Part shown: positions 4,176 through 9,421 of the stretch, in pieces
Position numbering within the stretch: the stretch's first letter is position 1
Layout of the letters: the number at the start of each line of letters is the position of its first letter
Origin: Anaeromyxobacteraceae bacterium
GTDB taxonomy: Bacteria > Myxococcota > Myxococcia > Myxococcales > Anaeromyxobacteraceae
Reading direction: 5' to 3'
Length of the DNA stretch: 64,000 bases
Assembly (NCBI GenBank): GCA_047602405.1
Contig: JASGHJ010000002.1
Span: 1,344,001 to 1,408,000 of the forward strand
Notes under the pieces: model-generated
Databases searched by the model: none
What the model saw: the letters and a program-made list of their open reading frames with translations, nothing else
What the model was told of the DNA's origin: nothing
Translations under genes and position numbers: made by a program

Positions 4176-4227
4176 GCGGCCCGCATCCTTTGCAGTCCGC
4201 CGCCTTCGCGCGAGCAGGAGAACCGTC

Positions 4228-5652
<1,425 letters not shown>

Positions 5653-5676: not shown

Positions 5677-5983
5677 GTTGGCATGCGTGACCGTGGGGGC
5701 GAAACGCGCCTCCGCGACGGCGCTTGCTCGGACGGGTTTGAGACGGAGCAGATCGCCGGAACCGTTGCCGTTCCAGGGCGGTGATCGGCGGCAGCAGGCC
5801 TGCGGTTGAGTTGCGCGTGACGGCACGGCGCGCTTCGCGCGCCATGCCGCCACACGCCCACATCCCTTGGCCTGCAATGCTGCGATGTGGAGACGGAACC
5901 TCGCCCGTCGCTCGCTGCGCGCCGCTGCGGAGGCGCGTTTCGCCCTTGGGCCGAGCGGACCAAGGTCGGCCGATACTGCTGGG
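5677..5983. ncRNA. Candidate structured non-coding element, copy A (inverted relative to copy B)
   Basis: Imperfect reverse complement of 6063-6369. Perfect 19-bp closing stem 5697-5715/5927-5945 and a long internal hairpin at ~5790-5885. Confidence 0.55.
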
Positions 5984-6062
5984 GTGCAAGTGCGGAACTA
6001 ACGTTGAAGAAGATGAGGCGAACGCGAACGCCCACGCCAAATCGTCAGTCGTTCACCAGGAA

Positions 6063-6369
6063 CCCGGCAGTTTCGGACGCACCATCGTGCTCCACGCCCG
6101 AGAGCCAAACGGGCCTCCGCAGCAGCGCGCAGCGAGCGACGGGCGAGGTCCCGTCACCACATCTCGCATTGCAGGCCAAGGAACCATCGCGCGGGGACGG
6201 CGCCGTGCGCTCGAGCGCACGACGCCGTCACGCGCACATGGTCCGCAGGCCTGCTGCGCGATCACCGCCGTGGAACAGCAACGGTTCCGGCGATCTGTTC
6301 CGTCTCAAACCCGTCCGAGCAAGCGCTGTCGCGGAGGCCCGTTTGGCTCCCACGGACACGTATGCCGAC
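6063..6369. ncRNA. Candidate structured non-coding element, copy B
   Basis: Perfect 19-bp closing stem 6102-6120/6331-6349 with three compensated differences from copy A. Long internal hairpin at ~6164-6261. Confidence 0.55.
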
Positions 6370-6408
6370 AGCAGGAGGCCCGTTTGGCTCCCACGGACAC
6401 GTCTGCCG
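6333..6408 (+). repeat. Tandem direct repeat, 2 x 35 bp (41-bp period)
   Basis: GGAGGCCCGTTTGGCTCCCACGGACACGT(A/C)TGCCG at 6333-6367 and 6374-6408, one mismatch. Confidence 0.9.
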
Positions 6409-6440
6409 GCTGAGGGCGCCCTGGATGGATGGATGGGGGC

Positions 6441-7571
6441 TCACCCGCCCGCCATCACCGGCAGCTTCAGCTCGAACCGGGCGCCGCCGAGGGGCGACTC
6501 GTCGACGTGGATCGTGCCGCCGTGCTGGACGACGATGGCGTGCACGATCGAGAGCCCGAGCCCGGACCCCTTGGCCTTCGTCGTGAAGAACGGCTCGAAC
6601 ACGCGGTCGCGCACGCCCTCCGGGACGCCCGGCCCGTCGTCGTCGAGATCGATGAGGACGTGGGCGCCCGCGTCGGCGGTGGCGTCGGGGTCCGCGGCGA
6701 GGGGGCGGCAGGAGACGCGGACGCGGCCGCCGTCGCCCACGGCCTCGAGGGCGTTCAGGCCGAGGTTCACGAGCACCTGGCGCAGGCGCTCCTCGTCGCC
6801 CGGGATGGGCGGGCAGGGGACGAGGTCGCGATCCAGCTTGACGCCGCGGCGCTCGGCCTCGACCTCGAGGAGATCGAGCACCTTGCGCACCACCGGGACC
6901 ACCTCGACGGGCTTCGGGGCGAAGTCGCGCGGGCGGGCGAACTGGAGGAAGTCCTCCAGGATGTGATCCAGGCGGCGGATCTCGTCGCGCACCAGCGTGA
7001 GCGGCTCGAGGAGCGGGCCCTGAACGTCCCGCTCCATCTTCCGGATGCGGCGCTCGAGCACCGAGAGCTGGAGGGCGGCGGCGTTGAGCGGGTTGCGGAT
7101 CTCGTGGGAGAGGCCCGCGGTCATGGTGCCCACCGCCGCGAGCTTCTCGACCATCTGGGCGCGGCGGGCGAGCTCGCGCTTCTCGCCGTGCAGGCGGACC
7201 TGCCGGAGCGCCTGCTCGACGGTGACGAGGAGCTCCTGGGTGGCGCAGGGCTTCACGAGGTAGGCGCAGGCGCCGGCGCGCACCGCCGCCACGGCGGACT
7301 CGATGGTGGCGAAGCCGGTGAGGAGCACCACCTCGCCGTCGGGCTCGAGCGCCTTGAGGCGCGGGGCGAGGGCGGTGCCGTCGCCGTCGGGGAGCTTGAG
7401 ATCCACGAGCGCGACGTCGAAGCCCTCCGAGGCGGCGGTCAGCGCGCCCGCGCAGGTGCCCGCGCCCTGGACGGCGTAGCCGGCCGAGCTCAGGATCTCC
7501 GAGAGGTTCTCCACCAGCACCTCGTTGTCGTCGACGACGAGGAGCCTCGGGCGCCGCGCGGCCTCGCTCAC
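6441..7571 (-). CDS. Receiver-histidine kinase hybrid (REC-HisKA-HATPase)
   Basis: LLVVDDN, VDLKLPD, SHEIRNPL, NLGLNA, DDGPG, FEPFFTTK, GSGLGL. GTG at 7571 overlaps the upstream stop. Confidence 0.9.
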   Translation of the reverse strand: MSEAARRPRLLVVDDNEVLVENLSEILSSAGYAVQGAGTCAGALTAASEGFDVALVDLKLPDGDGTALAPRLKALEPDGEVVLLTGFATIESAVAAVRAGACAYLVKPCATQELLVTVEQALRQVRLHGEKRELARRAQMVEKLAAVGTMTAGLSHEIRNPLNAAALQLSVLERRIRKMERDVQGPLLEPLTLVRDEIRRLDHILEDFLQFARPRDFAPKPVEVVPVVRKVLDLLEVEAERRGVKLDRDLVPCPPIPGDEERLRQVLVNLGLNALEAVGDGGRVRVSCRPLAADPDATADAGAHVLIDLDDDGPGVPEGVRDRVFEPFFTTKAKGSGLGLSIVHAIVVQHGGTIHVDESPLGGARFELKLPVMAGG

Positions 7572-8289: not shown

Positions 8290-9421
8290 CTAGGCCGGCA
8301 GGCGGATGGTGAACCGCGCCCCGCCCCCCGGCCGTTCGTCATAGGTGATGGTGCCGCCGTGGCGCTCCACGATCCGCTTCACGAGCGCGAGCCCGAGCCC
8401 GATGCCCTTGGCCTTGGTGGTGATGAGGGGCTCGAACAGCCGCCGCCGCGTGGCCGGGTCCACGCCGGGCCCGGTGTCGTCCACCACGAGCTCGATCTGG
8501 GCGTCGGCCCGGCGCCCGCGCACGCCGACGACGCCCTTCGCCCCCGCAGCGTACACCGCGTTCTCGACGAGGTTCACGAGCACCTGGCGCAGCTGCCCCG
8601 CGTCGCCCGACAGGACCGGGAGCTCGGCGAGCTCGAGCTCGAGCGCGACCTCCGGGGGGCGCTTCACCGACTCGACCACGTCGCGCACGAGGGCGTCGAG
8701 CCGGACGTCGGCGCGCGCGAGCGGGCGGTCCCGGATCATGTCGAGCAGGTTCGTGATGATCCCGTTCGCCACCCCGAGCTGCTCGCCGATGCGGTTGATG
8801 TGCTTCGCGGTGCGCTCGTCGACGTCGCCCTTCGACCTCAGGATGTAGAGCGAGGTCTCGATCACGCCGAGCGGGTTGCGCAGGTCGTGGCCGATCGAGC
8901 CCACGAGCTGACCGAAGGTCGAGAGCCGCTCCACCCGCGCCTGCTGGGCGAGCATGTCGTCGCGGTACGTGTGCAGCATGATGGCGAGCTCGAGGTCGAG
9001 GATTCTTGCCGACCGAGGAGCGGAGCTTGTCGAGCGCGTCGCCGTGGAAGTGGGCGCGCGCGACCCGGTCGAGCTCGTCCCGGTGCACGTTCATCGCCCC
9101 GAACATGTAGTGCTGGGGGAGGCCGATGCGGACGTGGATCCGGCCGATCTTGTACCGCTCGTTCCAGTAGTCCTCGTCCCACGGCCCGAGGAGGAGGCGG
9201 TCCAGCCAGGCCACCATCGTGACCTTGAGGTGGCCGACCGAGCTCTCGCCCCCGACGAGGGCCTTCTTCGCCTCCTCGTGGTTGAGGATCCGGTCGTAGA
9301 AGACCTCCGCCATGCGCTGGAACTCCGGCGCGGCGACCGGGTGGAACGCCCGGAGGCGCTCCTCGTCGGCCGTGTCGAAGAGGACGTACCGCTTCAGCTC
9401 CGCGAGCACGGTCTCGGGCAT
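8290..9421 (-). CDS. gchK: Globin-coupled O2-sensor histidine kinase (AfGcHK-like); apparent 1-nt frameshift at 9001-9005
   Basis: N-terminal sensor globin ([26 protein letters not shown]). Removing one base in GATTC restores [18 protein letters not shown] into the GHDLRNPL kinase domain. Confidence 0.9.

Follow-up and report, generated by a model that had tools for sequence, protein, structure and literature searches.

The question raised by this locus is what kind of element occupies the gap between two convergent signalling genes and how it came to be there. The window, that is, the whole 64,000-nucleotide stretch of DNA that was analysed, comes from the genome of an Anaeromyxobacteraceae bacterium (G000 below), and the inter-stop gap of 788 bp holds two inverted non-coding copies of one sequence, here called arms. 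A preliminary description made from the sequence had proposed three readings: 6S-like RNAs, retron-like RNAs, or a non-autonomous MITE/REP-like element. The features of the locus are as follows, F1 being the family to which the two arms belong and F2 to F4 its sister families.

4396..5652, plus strand: left flanking gene, a sigma-54-dependent response regulator (NtrC/AtoC-like), stop toward arm A
5677..6005: arm A (left; stem type A; modules A-X-R-t), likely folded strand minus, read from the spacer outward
5677..5698, plus strand: outer terminal motif of arm A, which includes a REP-like GTGG (5693-5696); the folded strand reads CCCCACGG-N-(A/C)-CG here, a motif common to F2-F4
5697..5945, minus strand: closing stem of arm A, with 27-nt arms, 5697-5723 pairing with 5919-5945
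5832..5838, minus strand: apex of arm A, GCGAAGC, a C-GAA-G DNA mini-hairpin
5994..6005, plus strand: inner-end site of arm A, homologous to the IS1111 target TGAA[CT]AACGGT, with 2 mismatches, unoccupied
6006..6040: unique spacer, about 35 bp
6041..6369: arm B (right; stem type B; modules B-X-Q-s), likely folded strand plus
6102-6128 with 6323-6349: closing stem of arm B, with 27-nt arms
6211-6214: apex of arm B, TCGA
6374..6414, plus strand: tandem duplicate (88%) of the outer 41 bp of arm B
6441..7571, minus strand: right flanking gene, a receiver-histidine kinase hybrid, stop toward arm B

The arms are 81% identical over 310 bp, with matching segments of 111 nt (91%), 83 nt (83%) and 44 nt (80%). 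The inverted non-coding arrangement between convergent operons had thus been recognised correctly, whereas the extent given for the copies (5677-5983 and 6063-6369, with a spacer of about 80 bp) was too short, as homology reaches further inward. The perfect 19-bp stem core attributed to each copy, with its three compensated differences, is present and lies within the 27-nt stem arms, and the apices TTC (5834-5836) and TCGA, the GGAAC/GTTCC hairpin and the GCGAAGC on the minus strand of arm A were all found in the sequence. The closing stem of arm A surrounds one side hairpin and a long central hairpin. Fold z-scores against shuffled sequences were -3.3 for the plus and -6.4 for the minus strand of arm A, and -8.4 and -8.2 for the plus and minus strands of arm B. 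Two features had escaped the preliminary description: the duplication at the outer end of arm B, of a kind that recurs as outer-end stutters at other F1 loci, and the multicopy status of the element.

The G000 genome (6.16 Mb, 2 contigs, 98% complete) contains 31 F1 arms at 16 loci, arranged as 15 inverted pairs, of which the window pair is one, and one solo arm; all are intergenic. The arms are 318-338 bp long (about 325 bp) and conserved along their whole length. A conserved reading frame was ruled out, as the frames shift among copies. Full-length matches were found in 2 of the 37 genomes of the genus, G000 and its relative G010; the F1 profile gave no score to three more short, weak matches within the genus or to one from beyond it. 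Wider searches were exact-pattern or BLAST scans, by which diverged relatives are missed: among 185,579 genomes the F1 pattern yielded 31 stretches, only three loci of which scored, all in Anaeromyxobacter sp., while metagenome contigs yielded 42 stretches, none scoring. Viral contigs gave no match to an F1 or an F3 pattern, and no F1 copy was seen in the scan of plasmids and phages. Scoring relied on nhmmer profiles (from an alignment of 349 columns) and not on a covariance model, so remote structural homologues may be missed.

The placement of F1 is strongly biased. All 15 pairs lie between convergent genes, compared with 842 of 5109 junctions (16.5%; p 2e-12) in a background taken from our own crude gene calls, and the outer end of each of the 31 arms, the solo arm included, points toward a stop codon. 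The pairs are heterodimers: 14 of 15 combine exactly one B-type arm with an A or C arm (permutation p 0.0015), and partner arms are 69% alike, compared with 74% for random arms. The spacers at other loci measure 30-236 bp and are often made of short repeats. One spacer type is common to the loci at 980k, 2411k and 2508k and another to those at 2877k and 3365k, the flanks being unrelated, so that the pair appears to be the unit that is copied. The spacers are also strand-asymmetric, G-rich on the inward strand of each arm, and carry short stutter repeats (e.g. C1:2051476-2051711, C2:3293452-3293621); this stutter-built structure suggests slippage or end-joining synthesis.

Comparison with G010, which is 96% identical over the left flanking gene, reveals that F1 loci are present or absent between close relatives. 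The junction corresponding to that of the window is a 77-bp gap with no arms, which holds a terminator-like hairpin. Of eight orthologous junctions examined in G010, including this one, five were empty and three filled; the three F1 loci of G010 all occupy junctions orthologous to G000 loci, with differing alleles or deletions. The empty sites are not clean pre-insertion sites and one retains a short stretch resembling a B end, so some of them may be losses. No end-adjacent direct repeat was found in the 14 pairs inspected for target-site duplication, the longest shared words being 3-6 nt in arbitrary places.

For the analysis of the fold, 32 arms were aligned in 349 columns: 29 of the 31 from G000 (two truncated arms omitted) and three from G010 (three truncated arms omitted). 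RNAalifold predicted 68 pairs, 21 of them with compensatory changes. Over 54 named pairs, 99% of 1728 cells pair and 18 pairs have changed on both sides, although the arms are related copies and such counts overstate the number of independent events; none of 500 shuffles and no slid control approached the observed pairing value. The suggestion that structure is under selection, originally made from two copies, is well supported across the family. Each arm is a mosaic of nested modules, namely an outer stem (A, B or C), a second stem (X or Y), a middle module (P, Q or R) and an apical one (s, t or u). The 5' and 3' halves of every module match in every arm, four apparent half mismatches being intermediate alleles in which pairing is kept. 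Since different modules occur in all four gamete types among the arms while their halves remain matched, recombination swaps nested units with pairing intact. In two arms one module has been replaced by a piece of a short Ssn-type hairpin family. Mismatches inside the stems are conserved at columns 84/313 and 170/189.

The account that we favour, with modest confidence, is that F1 is an oversized REPIN/BIME-like, non-autonomous single-stranded DNA (ssDNA) element with a trans-acting mobiliser. Each arm of about 325 bp would fold as an ssDNA rod when the DNA is single-stranded; a strand-specific ssDNA-cutting enzyme encoded elsewhere, either a HUH/RAYT-type transposase or an Ssn-type GIY-YIG nuclease, might cut near the outer-end motif; and the pair would be copied as one unit to junctions between convergent genes, where least harm is done. 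The copies may then exchange modules, mispaired recombinants being purged if the fold is needed for copying.

In being multicopy, extragenic inverted doublets, the F1 loci agree with REP/REPIN/BIME sequences, and the REP-like part of the MITE/REP proposal fits best of the earlier readings. Available excerpts on REPINs and BIMEs (PMC3116915, PMC3733652, PMC6006769, PMC8266576) describe extragenic, non-autonomous inverted doublets, mosaic heterodimers of the y-z type and tandem duplications, all of which are seen in F1, as are conserved stem mismatches, a GTGG-like foot in most arms and targeting by IS110/IS1111 elements; the F1 stem mismatches resemble the REP bulge that TnpA-REP needs according to the excerpted part of PMC8266576. 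In contrast to the REPs and BIMEs of these excerpts, the foot is not an invariant GT(A/G)G, as GTGG occurs in 20 of 32 F1 arms along with seven other variants, and it is found on the other strand from the one favoured for folding. With a branched rod of 270 nt in each arm, F1 exceeds the 20-40-nt REP hairpin that they describe about tenfold in length, and unlike REPINs as portrayed there, F1 has no repeat-flanked RAYT at the Y1 loci searched, is low in copy number (16 loci), shuffles nested modules and has sister families that enclose genes. The variable foot, the size and the missing cognate RAYT place F1 outside this class, which it resembles in its workings. The plain MITE part of the proposal did not survive, since each supposed terminal repeat is itself a 270-nt rod; the absence of target-site duplications and of clean empty sites also separates F1 from classical DDE MITEs.

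It is unlikely, in our estimate, that F1 arms are instead 3'-end elements that the host tolerates or has domesticated, as terminators for both directions, as stabilisers of mRNA or as absorbers of the supercoiling between converging polymerases, and that were spread by host recombination and break repair only, their variable spacers and cargo being repair scars at a cruciform. Several observations agree with such a role: the orientation of every outer end, even that of the solo arm, toward a stop codon, the terminator-like hairpin in the empty G010 junction, the low likeness of partners, as expected if perfect long palindromes are unstable, the stutter-filled spacers, the presence of a Ku gene in G000 and the lack of an enzyme gene near any arm. 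Recombination alone, however, leaves the arrival at new, non-homologous junctions unexplained, and it would have to account for four non-alignable families with one common outer-end motif; moreover, no U-tract terminator was found in the arms.

Under the favoured account the folded molecule would be DNA, and the strand and chemistry of the fold also bear on another reading, that the arms encode structured non-coding RNAs in pairs, 6S-like rods that would be transcribed from the spacer toward the flanking genes, antisense to their 3' ends, and would have been duplicated genome-wide. On the strand leading outward from the spacer, G-T exceeds A-C (108 compared with 47 cells; 17 compared with 5 column types), which for an RNA means that G-U wobbles favour the outward-reading strand, although folding energies favour this strand in only 21-22 of the 32 arms. 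This modest asymmetry tells the two strands apart but is as compatible with RNA as with DNA. Internal loops and side hairpins give the rod an RNA-like look, and about 60 nt between the stem and the spacer are partly conserved but unpaired. The apex points the other way. It is C-GNA-G on the outward strand in 26 of 32 arms (14 GCA, 11 GAA and 1 GTA), the others being TTCA (3), TCGA (2, including arm B of the window) and TGC (1). According to the excerpt of PMC13037366, GNA is the only three-base loop that gives an extra-stable DNA mini-hairpin, and the RNA counterpart of a related GAAA hairpin melts far lower than the DNA form. A GNA triloop in which the middle base is free to vary is characteristic of DNA.

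Neither a sigma-70 promoter nor, by eye, a sigma-54 promoter was found in the arms, the GG-to-GC spacing of the latter being 8-9 and not 10. From the DNA-type apex and the missing sigma-70 site, the folded molecule is likely ssDNA rather than RNA, as far as sequence can indicate. A search of Rfam gave 17 sub-threshold hits, mostly to miRNA hairpins, with none at the gathering score and no 6S or msr match at E<=10. Sequencing data add little: no run contained half of the element's words, a 269-nt contig of depth 2 from a soil RNA library that matches 6188-6370 is neither evidence of transcription nor independent support, and one DNA sequencing run with arm pieces gives no independent support either. 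Its 31 copies and its restriction to 2 of 37 genomes of the genus, with presence or absence among close relatives, also set F1 apart from 6S RNA. We therefore regard transcribed 6S-like rods, which had headed the earlier proposals, as distinctly unlikely.

The mobiliser supposed for a REPIN-like F1 was sought among the ssDNA-processing enzymes of the genome. G000 encodes several Y1/HUH proteins, among them those at C2:1013k, 1325k, 2439k and 3137k, the type at C2:2524k and one at C1:1420k, and no arm-like sequence was detected beside its 11 Y1 loci or its GIY-YIG locus, the nearest Y1 gene being 13.6 kb away from an arm. Likewise, none of the arm families was found beside 30 Y1, 10 GIY-YIG and 28 RT loci of G000 and its relatives (best E 0.06). 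The check for RAYT genes recommended earlier was also negative, no RAYT flanked by arms being present at the 11 Y1 loci of G000 or at 30 Y1 loci of six relatives, where gaps in the metagenome-assembled genomes leave room for one. Three diverged short Y1/HUH genes are located at G000:C2:1013.5k, 1325.3k and 2439.0k, with the motif CATCTTGAATTCGGCAGA in the flanks of two of them.

A small GIY-YIG nuclease gene lies amid arrays of short hairpins in a layout similar to that of Ssn systems (G000:C1:1892.5-1893.6k, L193; in G010, L187 and L194). These short hairpins often have GNA-type loops and number from about 3 to 485 hits across the 37 genomes of the genus, being abundant in many genomes without giant arms. 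They occur at 4 of 16 F1 loci, compared with 83 of 842 convergent junctions, and at 18 of 52 F3 ends, a count that has no background figure. The hairpin-flanked small gene recalls the Ssn GIY-YIG nucleases with NTS/SRM hairpins in the excerpted account of PMC11893778, and its short hairpins resemble the F1 arms in their GNA-type loops. None of the 32 arms contains the published SRM motif, however; they exceed the hairpins described there tenfold in size, and no arm is adjacent to the nuclease gene.

Reverse transcriptases offer no candidate. A single group II intron accounts for all 8 RVT_1 hits in G000, and the one hit in G010 is of like size. The intron (484-aa RT) is present in 7 full copies and 1 partial copy, at or beside start codons (e.g. 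G000:C2:768981-770919), and was rejected as a mobiliser, as it inserts at sites other than those of F1.

A 1.47-kb IS1111-type element sits between the arms at 4 of the 16 F1 loci of G000 (L030-L033; G000:C2:480.6-482.1k, 980.6-982.1k, 1994.0-1995.5k and 2508.4-2509.9k). Its assignment to IS1111 follows from a DEDD transposase (NF033542, 254 bits against a cut-off of 140), sub-terminal inverted repeats and a downstream non-coding region of 279 nt. Each of the four copies interrupts one and the same sequence, TGAA[CT]AACGGT, at the inner end of an arm, and the conserved spacer-proximal sequence of the arms is the IS1111 target. No empty exact target is left in the 6.16 Mb genome, and the three sites with one mismatch are all F1 inner ends. 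Two segments of the downstream region match the two sides of the target site. Six related IS copies from other genomes were compared, and in 5 of them the guide segments covary with differing targets (the sixth, L174, could not be resolved), a natural reprogramming of guides to other targets within the same bacterial family. The guide of the F1-associated element is thus predicted to be programmed to the F1 inner end.

Members of the IS1111 family are known to target REPs (excerpts of PMC1525189 and PMC11187229), and the seekRNA-guided elements in the excerpt of PMC11187229 include ISPa11 on REPs and ISKpn4 on attC. The element found here shares with them the sub-terminal inverted repeats, specificity for a repeat and a non-coding region in which two segments match the target, and differs from those described in the excerpt in that the repeat whose inner end it targets had not been described before. 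Because only 4 of 16 loci carry a copy and related IS copies occupy unrelated sites, it is regarded as a passenger and not the mobiliser; its copies are also near-identical in diverged arms, and a mobilising role for IS110 (IS1111) was rejected.

Three further arm families were recognised. F2, which cannot be aligned to F1, occupies 13 loci in G000, every one of them flanked by convergent genes; it comprises 20 full arms and 2 partial ones and has no evident GNA apex. F3 was reached through the IS relatives and occurs in five other genomes of the genus (G006, G009, G011, G016 and G019; loci L275-L310 for F3 and F4); a strict F3 pattern matches 4 of 363 genomes of the order. Its arms are rods of about 325 nt, 29 of 42 carry a GNA loop in their central part, and in two genomes a related IS1111 lies in the apex region. 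F4 is a fourth arm type, the partner of F3 at several loci. The profiles of F1-F4 do not cross-match (best E 0.027), while the outer ends of all four carry on the folded strand a CCC(C)ACGG-N-A(A/C)CG-like motif, looser in F2. Hot spots common to F1 and F3 were rejected, as the 26 mapped F3 sites include one that is also occupied by F1, which is about chance level.

Some sister loci enclose genes. Among 36 F3 loci fetched, partly for their wide gaps, 13 inter-arm gaps were visible, of which 9 measured 367-1661 bp, most of them lower in GC than the host. Five of nine enclosed ORFs match Pfam families (TIR_2, AAA_15, DUF4276, DUF7832 and Stig1), 7 of 8 inserts are without counterpart in G000, and in two genomes that share a right flank the F3 arms enclose inserts unrelated to each other. 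Within the F3/F4 set, a TIR-domain gene and AAA ATPase plus DUF4276 genes are found. The F2 locus L096 (G000:C2:278072-279650) holds a 225-aa ORF of 63% GC between a full and a partial arm of the same orientation, in a cassette-like layout.

These enclosed genes speak for regarding F1 as a gene-capture platform, in which the inner ends would be attC-like ssDNA recombination sites, inverted and giant, and the window copy an empty slot. Integron attC sites stand in direct orientation and are 57-141 bp long. F1 arms differ from them in being inverted and about 325 bp long, without conserved R boxes and without an IntI. The likeness to attC, which the excerpts of PMC11187229 and PMC8266576 mention, consists in a folded ssDNA with conserved irregularities, small foreign or defence genes beside the hairpin (in F2 and F3) and IS1111 parasites, members of IS1111 targeting attC too. 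Against gene capture, no F1 locus encloses any gene except the IS, the best integron integrase score in G000 (TIGR02249) is 84 against a cut-off of 265, no RYYYAAC/GTTRRRY pair brackets the arms, and some F3 inserts resemble frameshifted fragments, which are also expected from passive repair. For F1 itself this platform seems very doubtful. A wider proposal covers all the families: Anaeromyxobacter may harbour an undescribed integron-like gene-capture class of at least four giant inverted ssDNA hairpin families with one end motif, which would swap modules as folded units, sit at convergent junctions and exchange foreign and defence genes through an ssDNA recombinase or nuclease. This we consider speculative, and unlikely.

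The retron-like reading, in the form of retroposed msr-msd copies like the msDNA-like repeats of Nannocystis exedens, is the most improbable of all: the layout of a closing stem, short hairpins and a long hairpin and the size resemble a myxobacterial retron transcript (Mx162, 241 nt) in the excerpt of PMC6868368, which also reports msr/msd repeats in a myxobacterium with no nearby RT, and a GNA apex would suit msDNA, but the genome encodes no retron RT, the priming motif (of the TAGC/CAGC/GAGC type in that excerpt) lies just inside the stem, as CAGC/GAGC, in the 20 X-type arms only and is absent from the 12 Y-type arms, the closing stem and apex favour the same strand where a retron needs an RNA stem and a DNA hairpin on opposite strands, and retroposition does not predict inverted heterodimer pairs.

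We found no description of these elements in the literature, where repeat catalogues in supplements may bear on their novelty; F1 itself, the end motif common to four families, the DNA-type apex, the programmed IS1111 and the cargo are new. The spread of REPs and REPINs is mechanistically unexplained, and in the units known so far too little sequence is available for their history to be read from it. F1 arms are long enough to show module-by-module recombination with pairing preserved, and with them the ideas that an ssDNA fold is selected and that folded substrates recombine become open to direct test. The repeat-programmed IS1111 would be a natural case of an RNA-guided recombinase that has specialised on a second selfish element. 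If the cargo of the sister families is actively captured, these loci would represent a way of acquiring genes at convergent junctions that escapes annotation entirely.

Two minor observations concern the neighbouring genes of the window. The receiver domain of the left flanking regulator extends upstream of its listed start at 4396 (4200-4396, plus strand), with no common in-frame start codon. On the minus strand, 8290-9421 encodes a protoglobin-like domain and a histidine kinase in two frames, shifted near 9000, and probably represents a single gene, the shift being due either to an indel in the assembly or to a true frameshift.
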